A program made the translations under genes and the position numbers. This document shows, one piece after another, positions 1 through 64,000 of a stretch of DNA of 64,000 nucleotides (positions are counted from its first letter, which is position 1; each line of letters starts with the position of its first letter). The stretch spans positions 13,516,001 to 13,580,000 of the forward strand of contig NC_135901.1 in NCBI RefSeq assembly GCF_964194155.1, in the 5' to 3' direction. The stretch is from Cetorhinus maximus. Taxonomy: Eukaryota. The notes beneath the pieces are model-generated. The model was not told where the DNA came from, ran no database searches, and saw nothing but the letters and a program-made list of their open reading frames with translations.

Positions 1-1850
1 CGAATTCCCTCCCCAAAGCCCATTTTGGAGAGCACATCCCCCATGTAGGTGTGCGATATTCTGTCAAAGGCCTTCTCCTGATCCAAGCTGATGAGGCAGG
101 TATCCACACCCCTGTCCTGTACATAGGCAATCGTATCCCTGAGCAGCGCCAGGCTGTCAGAGATCTTCCTGCCTGGCACAGAGCAGGTCTGGTCAGGGTG
201 AATCACCAATTCCAGAGCGGATTTGACCCGGTTGGCGATGACCTTGGACAGAATCTTATAGTCCACATTCAACAGTGAAATGGGTCGCCAATTTCTAATT
301 TCCTCCCTTTCCCCCTTGTGCTTGTAGATGAGGGTGATGATGCCTTTCCTCATGGATTCTGACATGCTGCCGGCCAGGAGCATACTCTCGTACACTTCTA
401 GCAGGTCTGGGCCGATCAAGTCCCACAGAGCCGAATACAACTCCGCCGGCAGGCCGTCGCTTCCGGGGGTTTTACTCTTCTCGAAGGACTCGAGGGCCTT
501 AGTCAGTTCGTCAGGAGTTAGCGGTTTGTCTAGGCTCTCCCGCGTACTGTGGTCTAAGACCTCCGTGATAGAGGACAGGAAGGACTGGGAGGCCGTGCTG
601 TCCGTGGGCTTCACGTCATACAGACCGGCATAAAAGGATTTGCTGATCCTCAGAATGTCGGACCGTGATGACTTTACTGAGCCGTCTTCTTCCTTCAGGC
701 TGCTGATCACAGAGCGCTCTCTGTGTACCTTTTGGAAGAAGAAACGTGAGCACGTCTCATCCTGCTCCACGGAGCGGACTCTGGAGCGGAAGATGATCTT
801 GGAGGCCTCCGAGGCAAAGTGCGAGGCTTGCTGGCCCTTCACCTCTTGGAGCTCCTCCTTGACATCGACCCCCATCGACTGCAGCCGGAGCAGATTCTGC
901 ATCTTTTCCTGGAGTCGGGACATTTCCCTCTGTTCCTTTCTAGCTTTCTGGGTGCCTTTGCGGATGAAAAACCTCTTGATGCTTCCCTTGATCACTTCCC
1001 ACCAGTGTGTCAGGGACTCAAAGAGGGGTTTCACGGTTCTCCAACCTTTGTAATCCCTCTTGAGCTCCTCAATGTTCTCTGGGGTCAGCAGTTGCACATT
1101 TAGCTTCCATGCCCCCCTGCCCACCCTCAGGTCTTCCTCCAAGTGGCAGTCCGCCAGTAGGAGGCAGTGGTCAGAGAAGAACACCGGCTTGACGTCGGTG
1201 GATCTGACTGTGAATGCACGGGACACAAACAGGAAGTCTATCCTGGAACGAATGGACCCGTCTGGCCGCGACCAGGTGTATCTACGCTGCGCTCCGTCTG
1301 CAGGGTTGCTGAAGACGTCGTGCAGCTTGGCATCCTTAACTGTTTCCATCAGGGATCTGGACGTAGCGTCCAATCTGCTTCCGGCCCTGCCGGATCGTCC
1401 AGCCGCATCGATGATGCAGTTGAAGTCCCCGCCCAGAATGACCGGCCTGGAGGTCGCCAGCAGCAGTGGGAGCTGCTGAAAAACCTCCAGCCGCTCAGCC
1501 CCTTGTGCCGGGCCGTACACGTTAATTAACCGGAGTGGAGCGTTCTTGTACATTACGTCTGCTACCAGGAGTCGCCCGCCCACCACCTCCTTGACCTCGG
1601 AGACGGTGAAGTTGCCTCCCCGCAGCAGAATACCCAGGCCGGAGGAACGAGAGTCGTTTCCGCCCGACCAGATCGATGGCCCGTGGGACCACCATCGTGA
1701 CCATTGCCTGTAGGAGCTGAGGTGCGGTATCGCACACTCCTGCAGAAACAACAGGTCAGCTTTGACCTTGGCTAGGTAGTCCAAGGTCGCAACACATCGC
1801 GTAGTAGATTTAATGCTACGCACATTTATGGATACAATCTTTAAACCCAT
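1..1850 (-). CDS. Tx1 ORF2 (AP endonuclease plus N-terminal part of RT), runs off the window
   Basis: ATG at 1850 gives MGLKIVSINVRS...LFLQEC...GGDFNC...FSDH...PGSDGLP...WRPISLLNVDYKIL...DQEKAFD. The ORF track lists no stop-terminated ORF in this frame, so it is inferred to be open to the window edge. Confidence 0.9.
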   Translation of the reverse strand, partial: MGLKIVSINVRSIKSTTRCVATLDYLAKVKADLLFLQECAIPHLSSYRQWSRWWSHGPSIWSGGNDSRSSGLGILLRGGNFTVSEVKEVVGGRLLVADVMYKNAPLRLINVYGPAQGAERLEVFQQLPLLLATSRPVILGGDFNCIIDAAGRSGRAGSRLDATSRSLMETVKDAKLHDVFSNPADGAQRRYTWSRPDGSIRSRIDFLFVSRAFTVRSTDVKPVFFSDHCLLLADCHLEEDLRVGRGAWKLNVQLLTPENIEELKRDYKGWRTVKPLFESLTHWWEVIKGSIKRFFIRKGTQKARKEQREMSRLQEKMQNLLRLQSMGVDVKEELQEVKGQQASHFASEASKIIFRSRVRSVEQDETCSRFFFQKVHRERSVISSLKEEDGSVKSSRSDILRISKSFYAGLYDVKPTDSTASQSFLSSITEVLDHSTRESLDKPLTPDELTKALESFEKSKTPGSDGLPAELYSALWDLIGPDLLEVYESMLLAGSMSESMRKGIITLIYKHKGEREEIRNWRPISLLNVDYKILSKVIANRVKSALELVIHPDQTCSVPGRKISDSLALLRDTIAYVQDRGVDTCLISLDQEKAFDRISHTYMGDVLSKMGFGEGI

Positions 1851-1860
1851 ATTAAAGCAT

Positions 1861-3423
1861 TTATTCTCCTACCAAACCCACTGTCTCTGAGAGTCCCAGA
1901 CCTTTAGTCTGCTCCTTCATACCCGTAGTGAGCTCAAATTCCTTCACTTTGGATGGGCTGAGGTAGATCTCCTTGGCCGTGTTCTGCTCCAGTGGCATCT
2001 GGAGGTTCACGTAGTGAGCGGGTTTTGAGATGACCTTTGCTGGAGAAGCTTCTCCAAAACTCACCCCCTCTGGGGGGTTGCTGTTCCCGGCTTCCTGGAG
2101 CTGGGGTGCGATGATTGCCTCACTGCTCCCAGATTCCAGGGGCTGTGGTGCACTGGCCTCCTCAGGTTGCAGGCAAAGTTGGGGTGCGCTGGTCTCCTTG
2201 TTGTCTCCAATTTTCTGGAGCTCGGGTGTCTCGTCCTCCAACGCCCTGGAGCTTTGCCGCCTCTTCTGTCGGTGCCGCTCTGGCACTTCATCATCCGAAG
2301 AGCTGCTGCCCTTGTCATCCGTGTCGGATGGGAGACGCCTCTTGCCGCTTCTCTGGGAAACGCCTTTGCTTCTTCTTCGCTCCCTCTTACTTTTCTTGTT
2401 CTTCACCGTCCGCCACTCCCCCTGCTGCTTTTCCACTGCTGCCTCCTCCTCCATTGATTCGCTGTCCTGAGGACTGGAAGGTTCAGGGGGTAGTGCTGTT
2501 GATTGGCTCTCTGTTGCCTCAATCTCTTTCTCCACCTTGTCTCTCTCTGTGTCCTCCTTTGTCCCGTTGAGCTCCCTGGGGGCCTTGGTGGTTGGAGTGA
2601 CACGGAACCTTTCTTCTGCTTCCCCCTGGTCGGCTTTGGCTGCCTGTGCGTAAGTACGGCAGCGTTTGGGGCAGGTCCTGTAGAGGTGACTTGCCTCGCC
2701 ACACAGGTTGCAGCACTTGGCCTGTTTGCAGTCTTTTGTCTGGTGCCCTTCCTGTTTGCAGATCTTGCAGAGGGAGGCGCTGCAGTTGGCCGCCACATGG
2801 CCAGCCTTGCCGCATGAGCGACAATGCTTGGGTTGCCCAGCGTAGACCAGGTAGCCACGGTTTCCCCCGATAGCGAAACTGGAAGGAGGGTGGAAAATGG
2901 CTCCCTTACCATCGGTCTTTAGCGTGACCTTAAACAGGCGTTTGCCTGTCCAGATCCCCAAGTCGTCTCGAATCTCGGTGCCGCTCCCCACCTTATCGAA
3001 GTACCTGGTGAGGAAGGTGACCACGTCGGCGACAGGGACGAAGGGGTTGTACACATGCACCATCACCTCACGTTCCCGTTGCAACGGCAGAGAAAAGTGC
3101 AGCTCCGCCGTCAGGATCTTCATCTCCGGCAGGTCTCTCTTCTCCTCGAACACCCTCAGGAGCCGGACGCAGTCTGCCACTCGCTTGAACGTCACGTCAA
3201 AATAACCACCTTTGCGGGAGTCGTGCAGGGTGAAGATCTCCGTAGCTTGGAAGCCGCACGCCTTCAACAGGATCCTCCTGGTGAAGAAGCCCCGATCCAT
3301 AGGTGATCCTCCTTCGTCGCTGTGGTTCACCGTGACTCGGACGGTGATAGGTAACCCACGGTATGGATTCAGATTGCGATTGGTTATCGCCCTTCCATCC
3401 CAACCTTGCCTTGGCAGGACCAT
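1861..3423 (-). CDS. Tx1 ORF1 (ZCCHC3-like gag-knuckle protein), about 520 aa
   Basis: Knuckles CRSCGKAGHVAANC, CKICKQEGHQTKDC and CNLCGEASHLYRTC, then a charged low-complexity tail. The first in-element ATG is at 3423 (ACCATGG). The track's start at 3474 lies in flanking L2 sequence. Confidence 0.88.
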   Translation of the reverse strand: MVLPRQGWDGRAITNRNLNPYRGLPITVRVTVNHSDEGGSPMDRGFFTRRILLKACGFQATEIFTLHDSRKGGYFDVTFKRVADCVRLLRVFEEKRDLPEMKILTAELHFSLPLQREREVMVHVYNPFVPVADVVTFLTRYFDKVGSGTEIRDDLGIWTGKRLFKVTLKTDGKGAIFHPPSSFAIGGNRGYLVYAGQPKHCRSCGKAGHVAANCSASLCKICKQEGHQTKDCKQAKCCNLCGEASHLYRTCPKRCRTYAQAAKADQGEAEERFRVTPTTKAPRELNGTKEDTERDKVEKEIEATESQSTALPPEPSSPQDSESMEEEAAVEKQQGEWRTVKNKKSKRERRRSKGVSQRSGKRRLPSDTDDKGSSSSDDEVPERHRQKRRQSSRALEDETPELQKIGDNKETSAPQLCLQPEEASAPQPLESGSSEAIIAPQLQEAGNSNPPEGVSFGEASPAKVISKPAHYVNLQMPLEQNTAKEIYLSPSKVKEFELTTGMKEQTKGLGLSETVGLVGE

Positions 3424-3437
3424 GGTGTCGCCCCTGC
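3402..3437 (-). ncRNA. U1 snRNA-derived pieces in the head of Tx1 copy A
   Basis: GCAGGGGCGACACCATGGTC versus U1 GCAGGGGAGATACCATGATC is 17/20. It is followed by CTGCCAAGGCAAGGTT, resembling U1 TTCCCAGGGCGAGGCTT. Confidence 0.7.
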
Positions 3438-3438
3438 A

Positions 3439-3460
3439 ACACTTGATCTTAGCCAAAAGG
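3439..3460 (-). ncRNA. U2 snRNA-derived fragment (about nt 13-34) at the 5' end of Tx1 copy A; not a gene
   Basis: Minus strand reads CCTTTTGGCTAAGATCAAGTGT, 22/22 identical to the vertebrate U2 5' region as I recall it. Confidence 0.85.
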
Positions 3461-4905
3461 AAGACCAAAGCCATTGTCTTCAGTCACCACTACAAATTCC
3501 GTTCCCTAACCACTGAGTCCATCCCTCTCCCTGGGAACTGTCTGAGGCTGAACAACACTCTTCACAATCATGGTGTCAGATTTAACCCCAAGATGAGTTT
3601 CTGACCACATATCTACACCATCACTAATACCAGATATTTCAACCTCCATAACGTCGCCTGTCTCAACCCCACCCTAGATCATCTGATGCTGAAACCCTAA
3701 TCCACGCCCGTGTTACCTTTAGACTTGACGATTCCAATACATTCCAGGCCAGACTCTCATATTCATCCCACCCCCACGTGGAAACATGTAATCATCCAAA
3801 ACTCTGCCCCTGTGCTTTTTCACACCAAGTCCCGTTCATCCATTCCTCACCATTTTTGATTTATTCTTTTACAGGATATGGGTGACCCGGCTAGGCCAGC
3901 ATCTGTTGCCCATCCCTAGTTGCCCTTGAGAAGGTGGTGGTGAGCTGCCTTCTTGAACTGCTGCAGTCCATGTGGTGGAGGTACACCCACAGTGCTGTTA
4001 GGAAGGGAGTTTAAGGATTTTGATCCAGTGATAGTGAAGGAATGACCATAGAGTTCCAAGTTAGGATGGAGTGTTTCTTGGAGGGGGACTTGCAGGTGGT
4101 GGTGTTCCCATGTTTCTGCTGACCTTCTAGGTGGTAGAGGTTGCAGGTTTTGAAGGTGCTGTCGAAGGAGCCTTAGTGAATTGCTGCAGTGCATCTTGTA
4201 GATGGTACACACTGCTGTCACTGGTGGAGGGTGTGAATGTTTAAGCTAGTGGATGGGGTGCCAAGCAAGCGAGGTGCCAAAGGATGCTTTGGCCTGGATG
4301 GTGTCGAGATTCCTGAGTGTTATTGAAGTTGAACTCATCCAGGCAAGTGGGCAGTATTCCATCACACACCTGACTTGTGTCTTGTAGATGGTGGACAGGC
4401 TTTGGGATGTCGGGAGCTTAGTTTCTTGCCATATAATTCCTAGCTTCTGACTTGTTCTTGTAGCCACAGTATTTATATGGCTGTTTCAGTTTAGTTTCTG
4501 GTCAATGATAATGTTGATGTCGTGTGTGATTGGCTCCTGGTGAAGCAATGATTCAGTTTTAAAATTTGCATCCTTGTTTGCAAATTGTTCCATGGCCTCT
4601 TCCCTCCCTATCTCTGTAATCTCCAATCACACACCCTCTGAGATATCTGCACTCTTCACATTCTGACCTCTTTAGCACCCCTGATTTTAATTACTGCATT
4701 GGTCACCAGGCCCAGGTGTGAAGCTCCGAAATTCCCTCCCTAAACCTCTTAACCTCTCTCCTATTCGAGATTCTTGTTACAATCTGCCTCTCCAATCAAA
4801 CTTTGGCCATTTACCAAAATAACCCCTATGTGACTCGGTGTCAACTTTTGTTTTATGAAACTTGTCTGAAGCACATTAATCATGTTATATAAATACAAGT
4901 TGTTA
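3461..4905 (+). mobile_element. L2-clade LINE 3' remnant, split by an insertion at about 3860-4525
   Basis: Degenerate KTKAIVF...ETLIHA.VT.RLD.SN reading and an L2-like tail (ATATAAATACAAGTTG). Homologous pieces lie at about 43470-43730 (-) and 48010-48410 (+). Confidence 0.65.
3860..4525 (-). mobile_element. CR1-group LINE 3' fragment (family with the AAVCTIYKMHC...AAHHHLLKGN tail)
   Basis: ORFs 3916-4221 and 4246-4467 (TIYK.QVR.VMEYCPLAW). The same family occurs at 33270-33740, 47700-47960 and 51480-53270. Confidence 0.75.
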
Positions 4906-8579: not shown

Positions 8580-9422
8580 TCACTTGTGAATTCGCTTGTG
8601 AGTCACCAGGTTGGATGACCGAGTGAATCCCTTCCCACACTCAGAGCAGGTGAACGGTCTCTCCCCAGTGTGAAGTCGCTGGTGTCCCAGCAGGCTTGAT
8701 TTTTGAGTGAATCCCTTCCCACACACAGAGCAGGTGAATGGCTTCTCTCCAGTATGAATTCGCTGGTGTGTCAGCAGGTGGGATGAATGGGTGAATCCCT
8801 TACCGCACTCCGAGCAGGTGAATGGCCTCTCGCCAGTGTGAACTCTCTGGTGCTCCATGAGACTGGAAGACTGAGTGAATCCCTTCTCACACATGGAGCA
8901 GATGAACGGCCTCTCCCCAGTGTGAACTCTCTGGTGCTTCTGCAACGTGGAAGACTGAGTGAATCCCTTCCCACACAGAGAACAGGTGAATGGCCTCTCC
9001 CCAGTGTGAGTGCGTTGGTGTGTTACCACCTCACTTCTGCTTTTAAAACTCTTCTCACATTCTGAACATTTAAAAGGTCTCATGTCAGTGTGAACACGTC
9101 GGTGTGTCAGCAGGGTGGATAACTGTGCAAATTCCTTCCCACACACCAAGCAGGAAAATGGCCTCTCCCCGGTGTGAACTCGCATGTGCATGTGCAGCTT
9201 GGATAACTCTGTGAATCCCTTCCTGCACATGGAGCAGGTGAATGGTTTCTCCCCGGTGTGACTGCGCCGATGAATCTCCAGTTGGGATGGATAATTGAAT
9301 CCCTTCCCACAGTCCCCGCATTTACAGGGTTTCTCTCCAGTGTGATTGCGTTGATGAGTGTCCAGCTCAGACGGGTAATTGAATCCCTTCCCACAGTCCC
9401 CACATTTCCACGGTTTCTCCAT
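8580..9422 (-). CDS. C2H2 zinc-finger protein, 10 fingers, no KRAB
   Basis: 280-aa open frame starting MEKPWKC with TGE(K/R)PF linkers. Decayed fingers with stops lie upstream (9423-9670) and a splice acceptor is near 9790. Confidence 0.9.
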
Positions 9423-19377: not shown

Positions 19378-20526
19378 ATGGGGAAACCGTGGAAATGTGG
19401 GGACTGTGGGAAGGGATTCAATTCCCCATCTGAGGTGGAAACTCATCGACGCTGCCACATTGGGGAGAGGCCGTTCACCTGCTCCGTGTGTGGGAAGGGA
19501 TTCACTCAGTCATCCAGCCTCTACACACACCAGCATGTTCATACTGGTGAGAGGCCATTCACCTGCCTTGAATGTGGGAAGAGATTTAATGCTTTATCAA
19601 ACCTCCGGACTCACCATCGGGCTCACTCTGATGAGAGACCGTTTAAATGTTCTGACTGTGAGAAGAGCTTTAAAAGCACAAAGGATCTACTGACACACCA
19701 ACGCACTCACACTGGGGAGAGGCCATTCATCTGCACAGTATGTGGGAAGGGATTCACTCAGTCATCCCACCTCCTGACACACCAACTTGTTCACACTGAC
19801 AAGAGACCTTTTGAATGTTGTGACTGTGAGAAGAGCTTTAAAAGTAAAAAGGATTTACTGAACCACAAACGCACTCACACTGGGGAGAGGCCATTCACCT
19901 GCTCCGTGTGTAGTAAGAGATTCACTTGTTCATCCCACCTTCTGACACACCAATTTGTTCACACTGATCAGAGACCTTTTCATTGTTCTGACTGTGAGAA
20001 GAAATTTAAAAGCAAAAAGGATCTTCTGAAACACAAACACACTCACACTGGGGAGAGGCCGTTCACCTGCTCTATCTGTGGGAAGGTATTCACTCGGTTA
20101 GCCCACCTGGTGAGACACCATCGAGTTCACACTGGGGAGAGGCCATTCACCTGCACTGAGTGTGGGCAGGAATTCATTGATTCATCAGACCTTCTGATAC
20201 ACCAGCGAGTTCACTCTGGGGAGAAACCATACACTTGCCTTGTGTGTGGCAAAAGATTCAGTCAGTCATCTCATCTTACTACACATCAACTTGTTCACAC
20301 TGATCAGAGACCTTTTAAATGTTCTGACTGTGAGAAGAGATTTAAAAGTAAAAGGAATCTGCTGACACACCAGCAAGTTCACACTGGGGAGAGGCCGTTC
20401 ACCTGCTCCATGTGTGGGAAGGGATTTGCTCAGTCAAACAACCTGCTGAGACACCAGCAAGTTCACATGCGACAGCGGGGGTTGGATTCTGCTGTTACTG
20501 CTGCAGTTAATCACATCCAGGACTGA
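19378..20526 (+). CDS. C2H2 zinc-finger protein, 13 fingers, no KRAB
   Basis: 382-aa open frame starting MGKPWKC. Acceptor TTTTTACAG at about 19014 and decayed upstream fingers. Confidence 0.9.
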   Translation: MGKPWKCGDCGKGFNSPSEVETHRRCHIGERPFTCSVCGKGFTQSSSLYTHQHVHTGERPFTCLECGKRFNALSNLRTHHRAHSDERPFKCSDCEKSFKSTKDLLTHQRTHTGERPFICTVCGKGFTQSSHLLTHQLVHTDKRPFECCDCEKSFKSKKDLLNHKRTHTGERPFTCSVCSKRFTCSSHLLTHQFVHTDQRPFHCSDCEKKFKSKKDLLKHKHTHTGERPFTCSICGKVFTRLAHLVRHHRVHTGERPFTCTECGQEFIDSSDLLIHQRVHSGEKPYTCLVCGKRFSQSSHLTTHQLVHTDQRPFKCSDCEKRFKSKRNLLTHQQVHTGERPFTCSMCGKGFAQSNNLLRHQQVHMRQRGLDSAVTAAVNHIQD

Positions 20527-26827: not shown

Positions 26828-27916
26828 ATGACAGAGTCTCTCGATTCATCAGGACCTGAATATTATCAGTCTTTGAACATGGAAGTAAAAAGCACCATTA
26901 ACACTGAGGAGAAACCAGGGAAATGTGGGCACTGTGGGAAGGGATTCAATTACCCATCTAAGCGAGAAATTCATCAGCGCTGTCACACTGGGGAGAGGAT
27001 ATTTTCCCACTCTGACTGTGGGAAAGAATTCATTGATTCAACCAACCTGCTGACACACCAGCGAGTTCACACTGGGGAGAGACCGTTCAGCTGTCCCAAG
27101 TGTGGGAAGGGATTTGCTCAGTCATCCACCCTGCTGATATACCAGCGAGGTCACACTGGGGAGAGACCGTTCACCTGCTTCGAGTGTGGGAAGGGATTCA
27201 CTTGTTCATCCAACTTGATGAGACACCAGCGAGTTCACACTGACAAGAGACCTTTTAAATGCCCGGGCTGTGGGAAGTGCTATCAAACTTTAGATAAACT
27301 TATGTCCCATCAACATATTCACACTGACGAGAGACCGTTCAGGTGCTCTCACTGTGGAAATGGGTTCAGGCGATCATCCGAACTCACTGTACACCAGCGA
27401 ATTCACACTGGGGAGAGACCATTCCTCTGCTCTGAGTGTGGGATGGGATTCACTCAATCAGCCAATCTGCTGTCACACCAGCGAGTTCACACTGATGAGA
27501 GACCTTTTAAATGCATAGACTGCAGGAAATGTTTTAAAAGTTCTGGAGCACTGATGCGCCATCAAAGAGTCCACACTGATGAGAGACCTTTTAAATGCCC
27601 AGACTGTGGGAAGTGATATAAAAGGTCTGGGGATCTGATGTCCCATCAACGTATTCACGCTGACGAGAGACCATTCAGATGCTCTCACTGTGAGATTGGG
27701 TTCAGGCAATCGTCTCAGCTCACTGAAAATCAGCGAATTCACACTGGAGAGAGGCCGTTCACCTGCTCCGAGTGTGGGAAGGGATTTACTCAGTCATTCC
27801 ATCTGCAGACACACCAACGGGTTCACAGTGTGGAGAGACCTTTCACCTGTTTCGTGTGTGGGAAGAGAATCACTCGGTCATCCACCCTGATGAGTCACCA
27901 GCGAGTTCACAAATAA
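26828..27916 (+). pseudogene. C2H2 ZNF (about 12 fingers) with an in-frame TGA at 27614-27616
   Basis: ORFs 26828-27616 and 27638-27916 share a frame. Three fingers have also lost Zn ligands (HSDC, YQRGH, NQRIH). Confidence 0.8.
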
Positions 27917-34790: not shown

Positions 34791-35301
34791 TCATTCATCT
34801 CTGAAAAATTAAATGAGTATCTCTTTAATCAAAAATACAATTTAACATTTATCAGTTTAATTTTTAAAAATTCTTTGTTATCTCAATCCTAGACATCGCT
34901 GCAGGAATTCCTCAGGACAGTATCCTGGGCCCAACCATCTTCAGCTGCTTTATCAATCATAAATCAGACTTGGGAATATATTGCCGTTCCTTCATTGTCG
35001 CTGGGTCAAAATCCTGGAACTCCCTTCCTAACAGCGCCGACACCACATGGACTACAGCAGTTCAAGGAAGTGAACAGGAAGATTTGCTGACAGGAAACTC
35101 AAACCAAAAATCACGTCAAAATCTGACAGATTCACTCAATACATCAGGTGCTGGATATCATTGAAACTTAAATGTAGAAGGAGAAATGTTTTAACCAATT
35201 GCACGGCGTGAAAAAACATCCAATCATTCACAGCGGGGATAAACTGTATACGAAGTTTGGTCTGACCATCCAACATGGACAGCCACGAGGACACCGGCAC
35301 C

Positions 35302-36144
35302 ATGGAGAAACCGTGGAAATGTGGGGACTGTGGGAAGGGATTTGGTTCCCCGTCAAAGCTGGAAATTCATCAACGCAGTCACACTGGGGAGAGGTCATTC
35401 ACCTGCTCCGTGTGTGGGAAGGGATTCACTAGTTCATCCAACCTTCTGAGACACCAGCACATTCACACTGAGCAGAGTTCAGTCATCTGCTCCGTGTGTG
35501 GGAAGGCAATCGGTCATTCATCAAACTTTCTGAGGCACCAGCAAACTCACAGTGGAGAGAGGCCGTTCACCTGCTCTGTGTGCGGGAAGGGATTCACTCA
35601 GTCATCCTACCTGCTGACACACCAGCGCATTCACACAAGGGAGAGACCGTTCATCTGCTCCTTGTGTGGAGAGGGATTTAACCAATTATCCAGGCTTCTG
35701 AATCACCAGAGAATTCACACTGGGGAGAGCCCATACACCTGCTTTATCTGTGGCAAGGGATTTCATCGGCCTTCCAAACTACTGACACACCAGCGAATTC
35801 ACACTGGGGAGAGGCCATTCACCTGCTCCATGTGTGGGAAGGGATACACCAATTCATCTGACCTGTTGACACATCAGCGAGTTCACACTGGCGAGAGGCC
35901 ATTCACATGTTCCGTGTGTGGAAAAGGATTCATTCGGTCATCCCACCTTCTGACACATCAACTTGTTCATACTGATCAGAGACCTTTTAAATGTTCTGAG
36001 TGTGAGAAGACCTTCAAAAGTGAAAAGGATCTGATGACACACCAACGAGTTCACACTGGGGAGAGGCCATTCACCTGCTTCGTGTGTGGGAAGGGATTCA
36101 CTCAGTCATCCACCTTGCTGACACATCAGCGAGTTCACAAGTGA
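35302..36144 (+). CDS. C2H2 zinc-finger protein, 10 fingers, no KRAB
   Basis: Open frame MEKPWKC...HQRVHK*. An alternative in-frame ATG is at 35275. Confidence 0.9.
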
Positions 36145-43180: not shown

Positions 43181-44212
43181 GGACCGGAATCTCAGGAGGC
43201 TTCACACCGCTGGCTGCTCGTGAGGAAGTGATCTCCGATCAGATTAATGTGCTTCTGCTGTGAGTATTTAATAAAGTGTCCGAACCTCTCATTGTGCTTC
43301 CTGTCCAATATCCCCCTTGCCATGGATCTTCCAATTTACCAACTGGGGGAAAAAAATGGCTGTTCACTGATTGGTCTCGATGGCGGCTGGTTTATCTAGA
43401 ATGCCCTGTGGGTCAGAAAGTCCCCTATCAATGAGAACAGGAACCCAGAGCGCCAGCGTGGGGACCGGGCTGTGCTCTGAGGCAGGGGCACAGCTGGGCG
43501 ATGTTACTGAGGTGGAAATGGGTGGTTTTAGTGATTTGTAGTGAGTAGCTCAGCTTGGGCTGAAATTTGACAACAAGATTGTGAATAGTCTGGTTCAGCC
43601 TCAGAGAGCTGCAAGAGGGATGGAGTCGGTGGTTAGGGAGTGGAGACAATGGCTTTCATCTTCCCAACATTTAAATGGAGGAAATTTCTGCTCATCCAGT
43701 ACTGGATGTCAGACAAGTTAGGACAGTGTGTGAGTTGGAGGTGATGGTGTTCATTGACACCTGTTACCTTCGTACTTCTAGGTAGGGGATGTTGAGGGTT
43801 TGGGATATTCTGCCAAAGTTCTGGTTGAGCTGAAGATGTATTGAACACATCTTCACCCCCTGCACCTCCCACCTCTCTCTTTCATCCCATGGAGGCCAGA
43901 GTCTTGTGTAGACCCAGACCAGGTGGCAGGTTCCATTCCCTGAAGGACATTAGTGAACCAGTTGGGTTTTTATGACAATCCGGCAGTTTTCATGGTCACT
44001 TTTCCCTCATGCCGGCCCCACAAATTACCAGATTCATTCAGCTCAATTTCACAACCTGCATTTGTGTTTTTGTGGATTCTCTCTCACACCTTTTTTTCTG
44101 TTTTAAATCAATTTCACAGGGTATTAGAAGGGGAGGATTTGCAGTCAGGAAACAGAAACAAAACATCACAGCAGAATCTGACATTCGCCCTGAATATCAT
44201 TTGATTTTGAAC

Positions 44213-45334
44213 ATGGAAGGAGAAAGTACCGTTCACAGTGGAGAGAAATCGTACATGTGTCCTGTGTGTGGACGAGGCTTCAACCGATCATCTGGCCTGT
44301 CAAGACACAAGCGCAGCCACATCGGGGAGAAACCATGGAAATGTGGGGACTGTGGGAAGGGATTCAGATTCCCGTCAGAGCTGGAAGAGCATCGGCGCAG
44401 TCACACTGGGGAGAGGCCGTTCACTTGCTCAACGTGTGGGAAGGGATTTACTCTTTCAAGCTACCTGTTGAGCCACCAGCGAGTTCACAGTGAAGAGAGA
44501 CCTTTTAAATGCCCAGACTGTGGGAAGTGCTTTAAAAGTTCCTGTGAGCTGATGTCCCATCAACGTGTTCACACTGACGAGAGACCATTTAAATGCTCTC
44601 ACTGCGGTACTGGGTTCAGGCGATCATCTCAACTCACTGTACACCAGCGAATTCACACTGGGGAGAGGCCGTTCACCTGCCCCGAGTGTGGGAAGGGATT
44701 CACTCAGTCATCCCACCTGCTGACACACCAGCAAGTTCACACAGGGGAGAGACCTTTCATCTGCTCTGAGTGTGGGAAGGGATTCACTGCCTCATCCTAC
44801 CTGCTGAGACACCAGCGAGTTCACACTGGGGAGAAGCCATTCACCTGCCCCCAGTGTGAGAAGGGATTCACTCAGTTATCTAGCCAGCTGAGACACCAGC
44901 GAGTTCACACTGGGGAGAAGCCATTCACCTGCCCCCAGTGTGGGAAGGGATTCACTCAGTTATCTAGCCTGCTGACACACCAGCAAATTCACACTGGGGA
45001 GAGGCCATTCATCTGCCCTCAGTGTGGGAAGAGATTCACTACCTCATCCAACCTGCTGGCACACCAACGAATTCACACTGGGGAGAGGCCGTTCACTTGC
45101 CCCCAGTGTGGGAAGGCATTTATTCATCCATCCCACCTGCTGACACACCAACGAATTCACACTGGGGAGAGACCATTCACCTGCCCCCATTGTGGGAAGG
45201 GATTCACTACCTCATTCAAGCTGCTGGCACACCAACGAATTCACACTGGGGAGAGGCCATTCACCTGCCCTCAGTGTGGGAAGGGATTCACTACCTCATC
45301 CAACCTGCTGACACACCAGCGAGTTCACAAGTAA
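44213..45334 (+). CDS. C2H2 zinc-finger protein, 13 fingers, no KRAB
   Basis: [19 protein letters not shown]...HQRVHK*. Acceptor TTTCACAG at about 44118. The part of the track ORF from 44009 is intron or SINE. Confidence 0.9.
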
Positions 45335-45889: not shown

Positions 45890-47700
45890 CCATAGAACTA
45901 TAGAAAAGTTACAGCACAGAAGGAGGCCATTTGGCCCATCTTGTCCATGCCAGCCCGAGGACACCCAGGTGCCCTTTCTAATCCCACCTTCCTGCACCAG
46001 GCCCATAGCCCTGTAGCTTACATCACTTAAGGTGCAGATCCAGGTACTTTTTAAAGGAGTTTAAAGTTTCTGCCTCAACCACCAACTTGGGCAGCGAATT
46101 CCAGACACCCACTACCCTCTGCGTAAAAAAGTTCTTCCTCATGTTCCCCCCTACACCTTCTGCCACTTATCTTGAATCTACGGTCCCCTGAATCTAGAAT
46201 TCTCTACCATGGGAAACAATTTTATCCTGTCCACTCTATCTATTCCCTTCATAATTTTGTACACCTCAATCAAGTCACCTCTCAGCCTTCTTTGTTCTAA
46301 GGAAAATAACCCCAACCTATCCAATCTCTCCTCATAGTTACACTTTTCTAACCCTGGCAACATTCTTGTAAACCTCCTCTGTACTCTCTCCAGAGCTATT
46401 ATGTCCTTCCCATAATGTGGTGACCAGAACTGCACACAACACTCCAGTTGTGGCCTCTCCAGTGTTTTATACAATTCCAACATTGTATCCTTACTTTTAT
46501 ATTCTATACCTCTGCCAATGAAGGAGAGCATTCCATATGCCTTCTTTACAACCTTGTCTACTTGAACTGCTGCCTTCAGGGACCTGTGTACTTGTACGCC
46601 AAGATCTCTCACTTCATCTACCCCTCTCAGTATATTCCCATTTATTGTGTAATCCTTGTAACTGTTTGATCTCCCTAAATGTATGACCTCACACTTATCT
46701 ATGTTAAAATCCATCTGCCACTTTACCGCCCACTCCACCAACCCATCTATATTGTTTTAGAGATTATGGCTATCCTTTACACTATCCACTACTCCGCCAA
46801 TCTTTGTGTTAGCTGCAAATTTCCCAATTGTCCCCCCACGTTCACGTCCAAATCATTAATATATAACACAAACAGCAAAGGTCCCAACACTGAGCCCTGT
46901 GGAACACCACTTGAGACAACATTCCATTCGCAAGGGCATCCATCGAACATTACTCTTTGTTTCCTGTTACAAAGCCAACCTTTTATCCAGTTTGCAACAT
47001 TACCCTGAATCCCATGGGCTTTTACTTTCCTGACCAATCTGCCGTGTGGGACCTTGTCAAATGCCTTGCTAAAATCCATGTACACAACATCCACTGTACT
47101 ACCTTCATCAACCCTTCTTGTCACTTCTTCAAAGAATTCAATCAAATTTGTGAGGCAAGACCTTTCTTTAACAAATCCATGCTGACCATCCCTGACTAGC
47201 CCATGCCTTTCCACATGACAGTTAATCCTATCTCTCAGGATTGATTCTGCTAATTTGCTCACCACCGATGTAAGACAAACTGGCCTATAATTGTTTGGCA
47301 TTTCCTTTGATCCCTTTTTAAACAATGGAACTATGTTTGCATTTCTCCAGTCCTCCGGTACCTCCCCTGTATCTAGTGAAGATTGGAAAATCATCCTCAG
47401 AGCATCTGCTATCTCCTCCCTGACTTCCTTCAGCAGCCTTGGAAACAATCCATCTGGCCCTGGTGACTTATCAACTTTCAAGGGTTTCAACCCTTCGAGT
47501 ACTTCCTCTCTCTTTATGACTATCCAGTCCAATATCTCGCAGTGTTCCTCCTGGACTACTATATTTCCATCCTCCCTTTCCTTCGTAAACATGGAGACAA
47601 AATATTCATTCAAAACCCTTCCCACAGCCTCTGCATCTACACACAAGTTTCCATCTTCATCTCTGATAGGTCCCTTTTTCCTTAACTAACCTTTTAGCCT
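45890..47700 (-). mobile_element. Relatively young CR1 LINE, 5'-truncated (RT domain with one frameshift)
   Basis: ORFs 46789-47646 and 46178-46741 ([42 protein letters not shown]). Tail TTCTATAGTTCTATG. Confidence 0.9.
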
Positions 47701-55113: not shown

Positions 55114-55566
55114 TTATTTGTGAACTCGTTGGTGTCTCATTAGGTTTTGTGACTGAGTGAATCTCTTCCCACACATGGAGCAGGTGAATGGCCTCTCCCC
55201 GGTGTGAACTCGCTGGTGTGTCAGAAGGTCAGATGAATTAGTGAACCCCTTCCCACACATGGAGCAGGTGAACGGCCTTTCCCCAGTGTGACCACGCTTG
55301 TGTTTCAGGAGGTGAGATGAACTGCTGATTCCCTTCATACACACAGAGCAGATGAATGGTCGCTCCCCAGTGTGAATTCGCTGGTGTGTGAGTAGGTTGA
55401 ATGATCGATTAAATCCCTTCCCACACATGGAGCAGGTGAACGGTCTCTCCCCAGTGTGACTGCTTTGATGACTTTCCAGCTGGGATGGAGATCTGAATGC
55501 CTTCTCACAGTCCACACACTTCCATGGTTTCTTGACCTTGTGATTCTCCAGGTTGGCCGATTCCAT
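55114..55566 (-). CDS. C2H2 zinc-finger protein, 5 fingers
   Basis: 150-aa open frame ..KPWKCVDC...HQRVHK*. Acceptor CTCCTTTGACAG at about 55594. Confidence 0.8.
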
Positions 55567-56473: not shown

Positions 56474-58228
56474 TTTTTTGCAAAAATATACTTTATTCAC
56501 AAAATATCTTCAACAACATTTCAAACCATTTCAAAATCACCAAAACAAAAATACAATCAGGTTCAACTTTTACAACGTATCACGAAATGCATTGATACAA
56601 AAAATGAATATTACATTCATTTGCAGACATTCATTTTGAGCTGTACAGCCCGAGGGGATTTAAACAGTTCCCAGTCCCTCGGTGCACTGTGGCAGAAAGG
56701 TCTTAGACAGCGACCCTTCCCCATTGCGCCTTTGCGGCGGCTGCCCCAAGCTTTAGTGCATCCCTCAGCACATAGTGCTGGACTTTGGAATGTGCCAGTC
56801 TGACACACTCGGTCGGGGACAACTCTTTGCGCTGGGAGTCCAACAAGTTTCGGGCAGACCAAAGAGCGTCTTTCATCGAGTTGATGATCCTCCAGCAGCA
56901 GTTGATGTTTGTCTCGGTGTGTGTCCCTGGGAACAGCCCGTAGAGCACAGAGTCCTGTGCCACAGAACTGCTCCGGACAAACCTCGACAGAAGCCACTGC
57001 ATCTCTCTCCAGACCTTCTTTGCAAAGGCACAATCCACCAGGAGGTGAACAACGGTCTCTTCCCCACCACAGCCACCTCGAGGGCAACGTGCAGCGGGGG
57101 TGAGACTCCTGGCGTGTAGGAAGGATCTGACAGGGAGGGCCTTTCTCACCACCAGCCAAGCTATGTCTTGGTGCTTGTTGGAAAGCTCTGGTGATGAGGC
57201 ATTCTGCCAAATGACTTTGACAGTCTGCTCGGGGAACCATCCCACAGGATCCACCCTCTCCTTTTCCCTCAGGGCCTCTAAGACGTTACGTGCCGACCAC
57301 TGCCTGATGGACTTATGGTCAAAAGTGTTTCTCTGCATAAATTTTTCCACGAGAGACAGGTGGTACGGCACGGTCCAACTACTTGGAGCGTTCCGCGGCA
57401 GCGTGGCCAGACCCATCCTTCGCAACACCGGGGACAGGTAGAACCTCAGCACGTAGTGACACTTGGTGTTTGCGTACTGAGGGTCTACGCACCACTTGAT
57501 GCAGCCACACACAAAGGTGGCCATCGGTATGAGGGCGATGTTGGGCACGTTTTTTCCCCCTTTATCTAGAGGCTTGTACATTGTGTCCCTGCGGACACGA
57601 TCCATTTTCGACCTCAGATAAAGCGGAAGATGGCTCGGGTGATCGCCACCACGCAGGAGTGTGGAATGGGCCAGACCGGCGCCACGTACAGCAACAGCGA
57701 GAGTGCCTCACATCTGATGACCAGGTTCTTACCCACAATGGAGAGGGAGTGTCGCTCCCACATGCCCAGTTTCCTCTTCAGCATAGACACTCGCTCCTTC
57801 TAGTTTCTAATGTATGCTCTGGTCCCTCCGAACCATATCCCCAGCACCTTCAGGCCGTCAGCCCAGTTCTCAAAGAACATGGCCTCGCTCTTCCCACGAT
57901 TTATCTTGGCTCCCGAGGCCAGTTCGAACTGGTCGCAGAAGTGGATCAGTCTGCGCACTGATAGCGGATCTGAGCAGAAGACGGCGACGTCGTCCATGTA
58001 CAGGGAGGCTTTGACCTGAGTGCCTCCACTGCCTGGGATTGTCACTCCTCTTATGCCCGGATCCTTCCTGATGGACTCGGCAAAGGGTTCTATGCAACAC
58101 ACGAAAAGAACAGCCGAGAAAGGACAGCCCTGCCTGACTCGATTTAATCGGAAAGCTATCTGATTCCCACCCATTGACTGAGACTGCGCTACTGATGTTA
58201 GTGTAGAGCAGTTGGATCCAGGCCGTCG
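56474..58228 (-). mobile_element. Tx1 copy C, 5'-truncated, with poly(A) tail and about 22-bp TSD
   Basis: RT C-terminal half (VRQGCP, LYMDD) and zf-RVT CPRGGCGGEETVVHLLVDC. AATAAA and an A-run mark the 3' end. TTGGGGCCTCCAGCGGGTGTTT occurs at both 56452-56473 and 58229-58250. Confidence 0.93.
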
Positions 58229-58489: not shown

Positions 58490-59350
58490 TCACTGTGCCG
58501 GGGAGTGATTGACGGGAGGGAATGACCAATGGGAAGAGGGGATGGAGCTGGAGGACAGAACGAGAACGGCTGGTCCTCCAATCGGAGTGAACGAGGGGCG
58601 GGGCTGAGCCCATAAATCCCTCATTGTCTCCGCAGGCTGCATATTGTCCCCGATAAAGGTGGCGGCCGTTAACCCGGCCCAGTGTCGGCTAATGGTCCGA
58701 GCAGCTGCAGCCGGTTCAAATATCGTACCCGAGCTTCGTATTCGAGGCTTGGGGCCCTCACAGGGTGTTTGTGAAGCCTCCCACCCAACTCGTCGGCTCC
58801 ATCCCTCCCCCATAACCCACCCGGCAGTATTTTACCGGCCGAGAATTTGGACACAAATCACCTCAGCTCTCTGTCCTCACCCGCACTGCGCATGCTCCAG
58901 CTCACAGAGCCCGCCTGATGGACGGCCTCTCTGGACCAATAGCAAGAGGAGGCGGGGCTGGATAACTAACTGTGCCTGGCCCGCCAACCAATCGGAATGA
59001 ATGAGGGGCGGGGCTGAGCCCGGATCTCCCTCATTGGCTGAAACTCTGCATCATTCTAAGCTGATTTGTCTCAAACTCCAGGAGAAAACTGGACCTTTCT
59101 GTTTGTGGCTTTAAACAGATGAAACCCTGTGGGTGTGAAGCAAACATTTCAACATTTGTTTCTGAAACAATAAAGGGAACATGATGAAACAATTCAAGGG
59201 CTGACTTGAAGGAATAACTGGGCGGACAGGGAATGTCACCATTAGGACAAGGAGAGTCCCTGGTTTCAATAAATGAACCGGCAGAAGAGTTAGGACAGGC
59301 TAGGGAGCAGGTTAATACTGTCATCATTCAGAACGACAAAGACTATAAAG
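58490..59350 (-). promoter_or_regulatory. Promoter duplicon (partly doubled) of the ZNF at 55114-55566
   Basis: CCAAT/GC clusters at 58520-58625 and 58930-59040, NRF1-like at 58887. Reverse-complement paralog of 41390-41900. Confidence 0.65.
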
Positions 59351-59353
59351 ACT

Positions 59354-59405
59354 ATACTTACCTGGCAGGGCAGAAACCTCGATCACAAATTCTGCCAGGG
59401 AAGGG
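59354..59405 (+). ncRNA. U1 snRNA-derived head of Tx1 copy B; not a complete gene
   Basis: ATACTTACCTGGCAGGG is identical to U1 nt 1-17, followed by CAGAAACCTCGATCACAAATTCTGCCAGGG, a stem-loop I-like sequence that keeps GATCAC. Confidence 0.88.
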
Positions 59406-59409
59406 TAAA

Positions 59410-61038
59410 ATGGCTATAACCAATCAAACCCCATATCATGGGGTACCTAACACTGTCCGAGTCACAGTGTAGGGTAGTGAAGAAGGAGGAGCAGCTATGG
59501 ACCGGGCTCTTTTCACTAGGAGGATCCTGCTGAAGGTGTGCAGCTTTGAGGCTGTGGATGTCTACTGCCTGCAAGATTTCCCCAGCGCTGGATACTTCGA
59601 CGTGACATTTCAGTGAGTGGCAGACTGCGTCAAGCTCCTGAAGGTTTTCAAGGAGAAGAGTGACCTGCCAGAGATGAAAATCCTGACAGCGGAGCCGCTC
59701 TTTGCTCTGCCTTTGCAACGGGACGATGTGGTGACGGTGCATCTATACAACCCCTTCGTCCCTGTCGCCGACGTGGTCACCTTCCTCACCAGGCACTTCG
59801 ATAAGGTGGGAAGCTGCACCACGGTTAGAGACGAGTTGGGGATCTGGACATGCAAACGCCAGGTGAAGGTCACGCTCAAGACCGACGGCAAAGGAGCCAT
59901 CTTCCACCCTCCATCCAGATTCGCTATCGGGGGAAGCTGTGGCTACCTTGTCTACGCTGGGCAACCCAAACTTTGTCGCTCATGCGGCAAGTCTGGTCAT
60001 GTGGCGGCCAACTGCAGCGCCGTCCTCTGCAAGAACTGCAAACAGGAAGGGCACCAGACCAAAGACTGCAAACAGGCTAAGTGCTGCAACCTGTGTGGCG
60101 AGGCAGATCACCTCTACAGGACCTGCCCCAAACGCTGCCGTACTTACGCACAGGCAGCCAAAGCCAACGAGGGGGAAGCAAAAGAAATGCTTCGTGTCAC
60201 TCCAACCACCAAGGCCCCCAGTGAGAGCATCGGGAACAAGGAAGACACAGAGAGAGACAAGGTGGAGGAAAAAAGTGAGGCAACAGATTTGCCTCTATCA
60301 ACAGCACTGCCCCCTGAATCTCCCACTCCTCAGGAGAGCGAATCAATGGAGAAGGAGGAGGCAGCAGTGGGAAAGCAGCAGGGGGAGTTGCAGCTGGTGA
60401 AAAGAGCCAAACGGAAGAAGGGGCTAAGAAGGAACCAAGCCATTTCCCAGACAAGTGGCAAGAGGTGTCTCCCATCCGACACAGATGACAAAGGAAGCAG
60501 CTCTTCGGACGAAGAAGGGCCAGGGTGGCACCCACAGAAGAAGCGGCAAAGCTCTAGGGAGTTGGAGGACGAGACGCCCGAGCTCCAGAACATTGGAGAC
60601 AAAGAAGAGACCAGCGCTCCCCAATTTTGTCCACAACCCGAAGAGGCCAGCGCACCCCAGCCCCAGGAATCTGGGAGCGGTGAGGTGCTCAGCACACCCC
60701 AGCTCTGGGAAGCCGGGAGCGATGAGGCGCTCAGCGCACCCCAGCCTCAGGAATCTGGGAGCGGTGAGGCGCTCAGCGCACCCCAGCTCCGGGAAGCCGG
60801 GAGCAGCAACGCCCCAGAGGGGGAGAGGATTGGAGAAGCTTCTCCAACAGAGGACAGTTCATATCCCGTTCTCTACACGAACCCCCAGATGCCACCTGAG
60901 CGGAACATCTCCAATGGGGAGTTTCAGGACCGTTTCCTCAGCCCGTCCAAAGTGAAGCAATTTGAGCTCACTACGGGTATGAAGGAGCAGACTGAAGGTC
61001 TGGGGCCCTCAGAGACAATTGGTTTGGTAAGAAAATAA
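59410..61038 (+). pseudogene. Tx1 ORF1 (three CCHC knuckles) with premature stops
   Basis: ATG at 59410 (MAITNQTPYHGVPNTVRVTV), TAG at 59470-59472, TGA at 59614-59616, then the 473-aa open remainder. Confidence 0.88.
60648..60815 (+). repeat. 42-bp (14-aa) coding tandem repeat in the ORF1 tail, about 4 units
   Basis: SAPQPQESGSGEVL / STPQLWEAGSDEAL / SAPQPQESGSGEAL / SAPQLREAGSSNA. Confidence 0.85.
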
Positions 61039-61048
61039 ACACTTTAAA

Positions 61049-64000
61049 ATGGGTGTAAAGATTGTATCCATAAATGTGCGAAGCATTAAATCTACTACGC
61101 GATGTGTTGCGACCTTGGACTACCTTGCCAAGGTTAAAGCTGACCTGTTGTTTCTGCAGGAGTGTGCGATACCACACCTCAGCTCCTACAGGCAATGGTC
61201 ACGATGGTGGTCCCATGGGCCATTGATCTGGTCGGGCGGAAACGACTCTCGTTCCTCCGGCCTGGGTATTCTGCTGCGGGGAGGCAACTTCACCGTCTCC
61301 GAGGTTAAGGAGGTGGTGGGCGGACGCCTCCTCGTAGCAGACGTAATGTACAAGAGTGCTCCACTCCGGTTAATTAATGTGTACGCCCCGTCACAAGGGG
61401 CCGAGCGGCTGGAGGTTTTTCAGCAGCTCCCACTGCTGCTGGTGACCTGCAGGCCGGTCATTCTGGGCGGTGACTTCAACTGCATCATCGATGCAGCTGG
61501 ACGATCCAGCAGTGTCGACAGCAGATTGGACGCTACGTCCAGATCCCTGATGGAAACAGTTAAGGATGCAAAGCTGCACGACATCTTCAGCAACCCTACA
61601 GACGGAGCGCAGCGTAGATACACCTGGTCGCGGCCAGACGGGTCCATTTGTTCCAGGATAGACTTCCTGTTTGTGTCCCGTGCATTCACAGTCAGATCCA
61701 CCGACGTCAAGCCGGTGTTTTTCTCTGACCACTGCCTCCTACTGGCGGACTGCCACTTAGAGAAGGACCTGAGGGTGGGCAGGGGGGCATGGAAGCTAAA
61801 TGTGCAACTGCTGACCCTAGAGAACATTGAGGAGCTCAAGAGGGATTACAAAGGTTGGAGAACCGTGAAACCCCTCTTTGAGTCCCTGACACACTGGTGG
61901 GAAGCGATCAAGGGAAACAACTAGAGGTTTTTCATCCTCAAAGGCACCCAGAAAGCTAGAAAGGAACAGAGGGAAATGTCTCGACTCCAGAAAAACATGC
62001 AGAATCTGCTCCGACTGCAGTCGATGGGGGTCGATGTCAAGGAGGAACTCCAAGAGGTGAAGAGCCAGAAAGCCATGCACTTTGCCTCGGAGGCCTCCAA
62101 GATCATCTTCCGTTCCAGAGTCCGCTCCTTGGAGCAGGATGAGACGTGCTCACGTTTCTTCTTCCAAAAGGTACACAGAGAGCGCTCTGTGATCAGCAGC
62201 CTGAAGGAAGAAGACGGCTCAGTAAAGTCATCACAGTCCGGCATTTTGAGGATCAGCAAATCCTTTTATGCCGGATTGGATGACGTGAAGCCCACAGACA
62301 GCACGGCCTCCCAGTCCTTCCTGTCCTCTATCACGGAGGTCTTAGATGACAGTACACAGGAGAGCCTGGACAAAACGCTAACTCCTGATGAACTGACTAA
62401 GGCCCTTGAGTCCTTCGAGAAGAGTAAAACTCCCGGAAGCGATGGCTTGCCGGTGGAATTGTATTCGGCTCTGTGGGACTGGATCGGTCCAGACCTGCTA
62501 GAAGTGTACCAGAGTATGCTCCTGGCCGGCAGTATGTCAGAATCCATGAGGCAAGGCATTATCACCCTCATCTACAAACACAAGGGGGGAAGGGAGGAAA
62601 TTAGAAATTGGCGACCTATTTCACTGTTGAATGTGGACTATAAGATTCTGTCCAAGGTCATCGCCAATCGGGTCAAATCCGCTCTGGAATTGGTGATCCA
62701 CCCTGACCAGACCTGCACTGTGACGAGCAGGAAGATCTCTGACAGCCTCGCGCTGCTCAGGGATACGATTGCCTATGTACAGGACAGGGGTGTGGATATC
62801 TGCCTCATCAGCTTGGATCAGGAGAAGGCCTTTGACAGAATATCGCACACCTACATGGTGGATGTGCTCTCCAAAATGAGGTTTGGGGAGGGAATTCGAA
62901 ATTGGATCCAACTGCTCTACACTAACATCAGTAGCGCAGTCTCAGTGGGAAACAGATAGCTTTCCGATTAAATCTGGAGTCAGGCAGGGCTGTCCTCTCT
63001 TGCCTGTTCCTTTCGTGTGTTGCGTAGAACCCTTTGCTGAGTCCATCAGGAAGGATCCGGGCATAAGAGGAGTGACGATCCCAGGCAGTGGAGGCACTCA
63101 GGTCAAAGCCTCCCTGTACATGGATGATGTCGTCGTCTTCTGCTCGGATCCGCTGTCGGTGCACAGACTGATCCACATCTGCGACCAGTTCGGAATGGCC
63201 TCGGGAGCCAAGGTAAACCGTGGGAAGAACGAGGCCATGTTCTTTGGGAACTGGGCTGACCGATCCTTTGTCCCCTTCACTGTCAGGGCTGACGGCCTGA
63301 AAGTGCTGGGGATATGGTTCGGAGGGACCAGGGCATGCGTTAGAAACTGGAGGGAGTGAGTGTCTATGGTGAAAAGGAAACTGGGCATGTGAGAGCGACG
63401 CTCCCTCTCCATTGCAGGTAAGAACCTGGTCATCAGGTGTGAGGCACTCTCGCTGTTGCTGTACGTGGCACAGGTCTGGCCCATTCCACACTCCTGCGTG
63501 GTGGCGATCACCCGAGCTATCTTCCGCTTTATCTGGAGGTCGAAAATGGATCGGGTCCGCAGGGACACGATGTACAAGCCTCTAGATAAAAGGGGAAAAG
63601 ACGTGCCCAACATCGCCCTCATACTGATGGCACCTTTGTGTGCGGCTGCATCAAGCGGTGTGTAGACCCTCAGTATGCAAACACCAAGTGTCACTACGTG
63701 CTGAGGTTCTACCTGTCCCCGGTGTTGCGAAGGATGGGTCTGGCCACGCTGCCACGGAACGCTCCAAGTAGTTGGACCGTGCCGTACCACCTGTCCCTCG
63801 TGGAAAAATTTATGCATAAAAACACCTTTGACCACAAGTCCATCAGGCAGTGGTCAGCACGTAACGTCTTAGAGGCCCTGTGGGAAAAGGAGAGGGTGGA
63901 TCCTGTGGGATGGTTCCCCGAGCAGACTGTCAAAGTCATTTGGCAGAATGCCTCATTACCAGAACTTTCCAACAAGCACCAAGACATAGCTTGGCTGGTG
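61049..64000 (+). pseudogene. Tx1 ORF2 (APE-RT), disrupted
   Basis: Pieces 61049-61924 (APE), 61976-62959 and 62883-63359 (GVRQGCP, LYMDD), with frameshifts near 61920, 62945 and 63630. Confidence 0.9.

Follow-up and report, generated by a model that had tools for sequence, protein, structure and literature searches.

The U1-derived head of the window copy

At the right end of a 64,000-nucleotide stretch of the Cetorhinus maximus genome (contig NC_135901.1, positions 13,516,001 to 13,580,000; hereafter, the window), a Tx1-type LINE of 5.3 kb opens with the first nucleotides of the U1 snRNA. The locus raises the question of how an autonomous retrotransposon came by such a 5' end and how it would then be transcribed. 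For elements of this kind, Kojima (2015) ascribes the addition of the head to template switching and, in the available part of the paper, calls transcription an open question because snRNA promoters lie outside the RNA (PMC4494074).

The 17-mer at 59354-59370 is the sole match to U1 nt 1-17 in the window, even with one mismatch allowed; none of 100 shuffled controls contains it at one mismatch or fewer, and it is identical to nt 1-17 of the genome's own U1 genes. As the first-pass annotation had read it, the 17-mer begins 56 nt before the first ATG, that of ORF1 (Table 1). The head does start at U1 nt 1, but it is longer than that annotation held: aligned with the host U1, it consists of nt 1-33/34, a gap of 5-6 nt (about nt 35-40), and then nt 41/42 to 57. 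Its C46>G change is found family-wide, and G18>C at 59371 is private to the window copy. With the Rfam U1 model, the 2 kb searched gave 17.8 bits (E 0.099; the gathering score is 69.5) and the whole window gave no report; we identify the head as U1 because it matches the host genes exactly, the Rfam score being low. An HDV-like ribozyme at the 5' end, suspected by eye only, was dropped, with no such Rfam match in the 2 kb or in the whole window.

The element lies within a target-site duplication, and its poly(A) signal (window-equivalent position 64643) and tail are located beyond the window. It had been asked whether the rest of a U1 gene follows the element; we looked past the 3' end of the window copy and found no U1 remainder. 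The duplication is foreign as well, and we therefore reject the reading of this copy as an insertion in a U1 gene. The unplaced contig C379 carries identical copies of both window elements described here and therefore duplicates this region.

Table 1. Features of the window (coordinates relative to its first nucleotide)
Feature	Position	Strand	Remarks
Family B sister element	1..3460	-	Head made up of U2 nt 13-34 followed by U1 nt ~11-57
Left copy of 13-bp target-site duplication	59338..59350	+	Right copy after poly(A) tail, ~670 bp past window end
Three extra bases separating duplication from U1 nt 1	59351..59353	+	
U1-derived head and 5' UTR	59354..59409	+	Host U1 alignment
Predicted hairpin	59361..59399	+	Arms 59361-68 and 59392-99 (nt 8-15 with 39-46); prediction only
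ORF1, ZCCHC3-like RNA-binding domain, CCHC knuckles, start MAITN	59410..61038	+	Premature stops at 59470 and 59614
ORF2, broken into pieces	61049..64000	+	AP endonuclease confirmed in window copy

Coding capacity and the start of ORF1

In the open relative L275, Pfam identifies PF23057/PF23058 and PF00098, as well as PF03372, PF00078, and PF13966; the ORF1 and endonuclease domains are found in the window copy too, and its RT and zf-RVT were assigned by homology to L275. We call the element Tx1-type on the basis of the RNA-binding domains and CCHC knuckles of ORF1, the AP endonuclease and RT of ORF2, the poly(A), and the target-site duplication. That the lineage belongs to the Tx1 clade is our assumption, made from the domain layout and the targeting of the Keno site. 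With its 5.3 kb and two ORFs, the element is not a SINEU, which is short (under ~500 bp) and non-coding. Within its lineage, the window copy is nothing out of the ordinary, and it is broken.

A homologue search returned eight proteins, and the one labelled Heterodontus starts with MAITN, like the window copy. In the older U1-headed subfamilies and in a sister family, family B, the MAITN ATG is lost and ORF1 is open in frame from a U1-derived ATG at nt 26 or 32; the window subfamily has lost the U1 ATGs, and its first ATG is that of MAITN. These frames suggest that translation starts at U1-derived codons or at MAITN. The family B copy of the window has its U1-derived start of ORF1 at 3423 and its own 17-bp duplication at 3459-3475.

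The linker that precedes the ORF1 ATG in the young subfamily (59403-59409) looks like a 5' splice site, and in the relative L004 the same linker is predicted to pair with nt 2-6 of the head. Elsewhere in the window, there are a cluster of C2H2 zinc-finger ORFs (8580-9422, 19378-20526, 26828-27616, 35275-36144, 44009-45334, and 55114-55566), additional 3' portions of the LINE group to which the element belongs (minus strand, 56703-57605), and an RT fragment at 46178-47592 that we take to be CR1/L2-like.

The head is inherited

Searching the genome by DNA sequence and by pattern yielded 43 separate U1-headed copies among the loci examined, and the first-pass proposal that an autonomous LINE carries a heritable snRNA head starting at U1 nt 1 is borne out by them. 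Eighteen begin at U1 nt 1 on a strict reading (9/21 young and 9/22 older copies) and the others at nt 2-14, shares that are not genome-wide because the searches favour head-bearing copies. A lenient rule gives 10/21 and 12/22; the strict count reflects a single mismatch at nt 4 in L281 and the promoter-resident position of L257. The deletion and C46>G are common to the whole lineage, and the core of the head is therefore inherited. U1 sequence confined to this one copy, for which the first-pass annotation had allowed, is not what we find, and a one-off snRNA-LINE chimera is rejected on the same ground, the 43 copies sharing derived changes. The lineage thus has what defines a snRNA-headed Tx1, an inherited U1/U2-derived 5' head on an autonomous element.

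The target duplications sampled have no common consensus. At L040/L188, L189, and L319, head-to-tail stacks share one target duplication and mix U1- and U2-headed families. At L048 (C22:36777253), a U1-headed copy lies within the U2 head of another element (about nt 4-19) and has duplicated that stretch.

Predicted fold of the head

The annotation had described a shortened U1 stem-loop I formed by GGCAGAA (59369-75) and TTCTGCC (59390-96). The two arms are indeed complementary, but their pairs have a predicted probability of only ~0.15, against ~0.85 for nt 8-15 paired with nt 39-46. The favoured hairpin would hide nt 8-11 of the 5'-splice-site arm, and the nt 8-15 arm is predicted to be paired in all five U1-type heads folded (that of the window and four others). 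The G>C and C>G changes had been taken for a compensatory pair; we reject this, since nt 18 is G in 42/43 separate headed copies and C solely in the window copy (and its duplicate) and since the fold that the pair was to maintain is disfavoured. The loop bound by U1-70K is not retained as had been supposed, being shortened by the 5-6-nt deletion at about U1 nt 35-40. The first 300 nt contain no Sm-type motif. Together with the low Rfam score and the different predicted fold, this sets the head apart from a functional U1 snRNA.

U2 heads and family B

Exact matches to the family B head from U2 nt 1 occur at 321 places (control, 0), and of 25 separate copies retrieved with a query whose first base was U2 nt 23, 12 begin at U2 nt 1. 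The family B copies are young (98-99.5%). In a midpoint-rooted tree of 95 ORF1 5' stretches, from which copies with less than 600 bp of ORF1 were excluded and whose bootstrap is not fully settled, U2 heads fall into two separate, strongly supported clades amid U1-headed copies. They are of two types: U2 1-37 replaces the U1 head in L176, L273, and L308, and U2 sequence sits atop the U1 head in family B. Doubled heads also occur, L177 having U2 1-50 and then the head and L154 having U2 1-36, a G, and then the head. All of the added heads seen end in the cut zone (U2 34-50; U1 44-57), and none is a whole snRNA.

Three layers are present at L172 and L173 (C215 and C568), where a U1 promoter and U1 1-44 precede an older U2(3-44)+U1 head; at L173, a later copy has inserted at the same junction.

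Insertions into U1 and U2 genes

A search with U1 upstream sequence returned 15 places, three of which are U1 genes interrupted by the lineage with their promoter intact. At L174, a truncated copy of 665 bp interrupts the U1 gene after nt 51; beyond it, U1 38-51 is duplicated and the gene resumes. Genome-wide, the pattern of poly(A) with a U1 remainder behind it was matched 212 times forward, with overlaps, and 58 times in reverse, and that of poly(A) with a U2 remainder (from about nt 38) 3,914 and 398 times; controls gave 0 in both cases, and many of the matches are amplified duplicates (C22 and C29). Each of the 19 U1 loci fetched at length ends in the 3' signature of the lineage, with junctions at nt ~31-41, and 14/19 run on into the usual flank of a U1 gene. 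A U1 gene also holds the 3' junction of L268, which is 95.8% identical to the window copy and has the tail of the window subfamily. In U2 genes, family B and its relatives have their 3' junction at nt 37/38, and the 20 nt that come next are the published target of Keno; this junction was not seen for the window's subfamily.

Most U1-headed copies sit outside snRNA genes, and 0/20 sampled family B copies are in U2 genes; the insertion specificity for snRNA genes is weak. Insertion into U1 and U2 genes, which the first-pass annotation had overlooked, likely explains the snRNA head.

Several other arrangements were noted. At L260 (C22), L341 (C31), and L342 (C30), family B has inserted with the host U1 or U2 gene left intact, in the order gene, 108-650 bp of flank, element, poly(A), and then the gene repeated from nt 32-35 with the same flank, the duplications measuring ~260-780 bp and some being tandemly repeated. 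At L304 and L306, a different short element, tRNA-like at its start, interrupts U1 genes at about nt 45-58. On C22 between 16.7 and 20.0 Mb (L201-L221), ~25 amplified, diverged U1 remainders lie behind an old element tail at spacings of ~50-200 kb.

Copies resident behind snRNA promoters

L275 is preceded by 1,500 bp that are 100% identical to the upstream DNA of a U2 gene and that pass without a seam into the head of family B. Behind the head come an ORF of 520 aa and one of 1,135 aa, both open, and after them poly(A) and U2 38-191. It is the only promoter-resident family B copy found, among the five with GGC upstream out of the 321 exact heads, in a search whose scope was exact heads. L257 and L259 have the corresponding arrangement in U1 genes, namely the U1 promoter, the family's deleted U1 head, the element, poly(A), U1 41-164, and the 3' flank of the U1 gene. 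Both are decayed, and L257 groups with the scattered copy L292 on the tree (99/90). At L291/L320, the U1 promoter and the deleted U1 head have a family B copy behind them. For the window's subfamily, a promoter-resident copy was found in 0/21 young copies, in a search that scored 40 of 796, 1,321, and 376 candidates and covered some U1 upstream variants.

One window-subfamily copy, L005/L034 (C24:9229332, minus), has in front of it U1 upstream sequence of the C24 type that extends for exactly 16 bp; it and its duplicates L008 and L009 are without a clear target duplication.

Scattered copies: U2 carry-over and the nucleotide at -1

Twenty family B copies were drawn from the first 100 listed, with the flanks ignored. 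A promoter precedes 0/20, and U2 38-56 follows the tail in 2/20, both 3' carry-overs being thus U2. At L323, the head, the element, U2 38-56, a second fragment, and the tail all lie within one foreign 22-bp duplication. At L316, a foreign duplication likewise encloses U2 1-37, then an element that is 99.5% identical to L275, and finally U2 38-191 with poly(A). L316 might alternatively have arisen by insertion into a processed pseudogene of U2, and stacks with U2 tags could have been copied from secondary scattered sources.

Immediately upstream of the head, G is present in 26/42 family B copies versus a 24% background (p 1e-7; one tandem pair and some doubled heads are counted among the 42, and six loci selected for GGC were excluded). 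In U1-headed copies, the count is 6/10 by script and 9/17 with seven older copies added by eye. Host snRNA genes with promoters have C or T at this position in nearly all cases. The G at -1 may be a copied cap; it could also come from plain non-templated C addition. The capped, U1-mimicking 5' end that had been imagined for this element accordingly divides in two: a cap at +1 is indirectly backed by the G at -1, whereas mimicry is unsupported, since the stem differs from U1 stem-loop I and an Sm site is lacking.

A proposal for promoter capture

The reading that we favour, at a probability of roughly 0.7, is that the lineage captures promoters by homing into snRNA genes. The inherited U1 head would be the 5' half of a U1 gene into which an ancestor had inserted, and the promoters of U1 or U2 genes would drive source copies, with transcription beginning at the snRNA +1. 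Pol II would start at +1, yield an m7G-capped RNA, and read 5 kb through the element. Such read-through is not a given because, in the parts of the sources available, U1-promoter transcription tends to ignore poly(A) signals, although its long transcripts are exported like mRNA (PMC2241894), and snRNA genes have a distinct elongation complex (PMC5493778). Once target-primed reverse transcription has taken place in an snRNA gene, the head of the cDNA may anneal to the 5' part of that gene and seamlessly replace this part, as has been suggested for melanogaster-type R1 in 28S genes; insertions that fail to anneal would stack a new head on the old one. Scattered copies, including that of the window, would have no promoter and be dead ends.

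A fuller version, which we hold less firmly and only somewhat above even odds, is that a LINE without a promoter homes into both U1 and U2 genes, that the head serves as a pairing handle for the swap behind the snRNA promoter, that heads change when an element lands in the other gene, and that in some subfamilies U1 nt 26-57 came to encode the initial residues of ORF1, start codon included.

Intermediate states coexist in this one genome: U1 and U2 genes that have been split, copies seated seamlessly behind a promoter, heads that are doubled, and promoterless daughters that begin at +1, some with U2 3' tags. Together with the young age of the copies, they make promoter capture directly testable at named loci.

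Other origins can be imagined for the heads. They might stem mainly from jumps of the reverse transcriptase onto mature U1 and U2 snRNAs as templates, which is how Kojima interprets SINEU, with transcription left to chance flanking promoters. The doubled heads of L177 and L154 would fit such jumps, nt 1 ends with a G would equally suit a capped snRNA template, and the variation of the young heads at nt 22 and nt 33 mirrors that among host U1 variants and does not sort clearly on the tree. We nevertheless regard this as improbable: the lineage-wide deletion and C46>G speak for an inherited core, the added pieces end within the insertion cut zone and are never full snRNAs, and template jumps predict neither the promoter-resident copies nor the U2 3' remainders. 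Slightly less credible still is transcription from an internal promoter in the head or at the start of ORF1, or by read-through that begins in a tandem copy upstream or in an intact snRNA gene, the snRNA genes being then merely a hot spot. That most copies are scattered agrees with it, as do the 8/43 U1-headed copies placed directly behind the tail of another copy and the family B copies found 108-650 bp behind intact U1 or U2 genes; however, read-through would not yield a sharp +1 end, heads have been swapped between U1 and U2 twice and always start at nt 1, and both carry-overs of the blind sample are U2. The available part of PMC4494074, moreover, reports no internal snRNA promoter.

Finally, the head might have been retained as a mimic of the U1 snRNP, recruiting U1-70K or a trimethyl cap and aiding stability, export, or import. 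This reading is compatible with promoter capture and draws on the good conservation of U1 nt 1-25 between subfamilies and on the GATCA(C) motif that is still present. That conservation is, however, equally expected if pairing with the target gene is required, and the disruption of stem-loop I by the deletion and C46>G, the predicted burial of nt 8-11, the lack of an Sm-type motif in the first 300 nt, and the occurrence of G18>C in 1/43 copies make mimicry very unlikely in our opinion.

If promoter capture is correct, a Pol II snRNA promoter would drive a 5-kb coding RNA in nature, U1 genes would be LINE targets, and non-coding RNA sequence would have been recruited as the start of a protein. 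The fuller version would also explain the transcription of crocodilian SINEU and headed Tx1 elements and their stacked heads.

Comparison with known systems

The first-pass annotation implied that an autonomous LINE with an snRNA head was new, yet such Tx1 families have been published: Kojima (2015) describes, in the part of the paper available, crocodilian autonomous families with U1 heads (Tx1-2_Crp, Tx1-2B_Crp, and Tx1-4_AMi) and one with a U2 head (Tx1-11_Crp) (PMC4494074). What is new here is genomic evidence that, at U1 as well as U2 genes, points to promoter capture, a process that would likely account for these known but unexplained snRNA-headed elements. In the literature searched, whose scope left out Repbase and subscription papers (these may describe U1 targeting), we found no report of a LINE that targets U1 genes or of promoter-resident sources, and the accessible parts of PMC5786205, PMC5381603, PMC8869645, and PMC5753468 contain nothing on the transcription of snRNA-headed Tx1 families.

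The crocodilian Tx1-Mar families and SINEU resemble the shark lineage in their U1/U2 heads at the 5' end, repeated stacking of U1 and U2 sequence, and tandem insertion, and the Tx1-Mar families cluster with Keno, according to the available text of PMC4494074. They are old (85-87% to consensus) and prefer Mariner-N4_AMi, whereas shark copies are young (98-99.5% for family B); unlike them, the shark lineage inserts in real U1 and U2 genes and includes full-length promoter-resident copies. Keno itself is a U2-gene-specific LINE of the Tx1 clade (PMC6136364, PMC4640811) and, as far as those sources were available, is likewise an AP-endonuclease LINE with a 3' junction at U2 nt 37/38 and the same 20-nt target (PMC6136364). 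The likeness rests on the target site; the shark lineage does not share the specificity of Keno for U2 genes, since most of its copies are outside them and U1 genes are hit too (nt ~31-41), and its ancestral head is U1.

For the use of the head, the nearest parallel is provided by R1A and R2 in 28S rRNA genes. In melanogaster-type R1A, upstream target sequence borne at the 5' end of its RNA is proposed, in the accessible part of PMC2718515, to anneal with the target and thereby to give precise junctions; off-target R1A copies retain upstream target sequence, and R2 is proposed to depend on transcription of the host gene (PMC2718515). We liken the shark lineage to them in the proposed annealing, to which genomic signatures point. 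It differs in that the target is a Pol II snRNA gene, the piece carried is the whole 5' end from +1, the clade is another one, and the specificity is weak.
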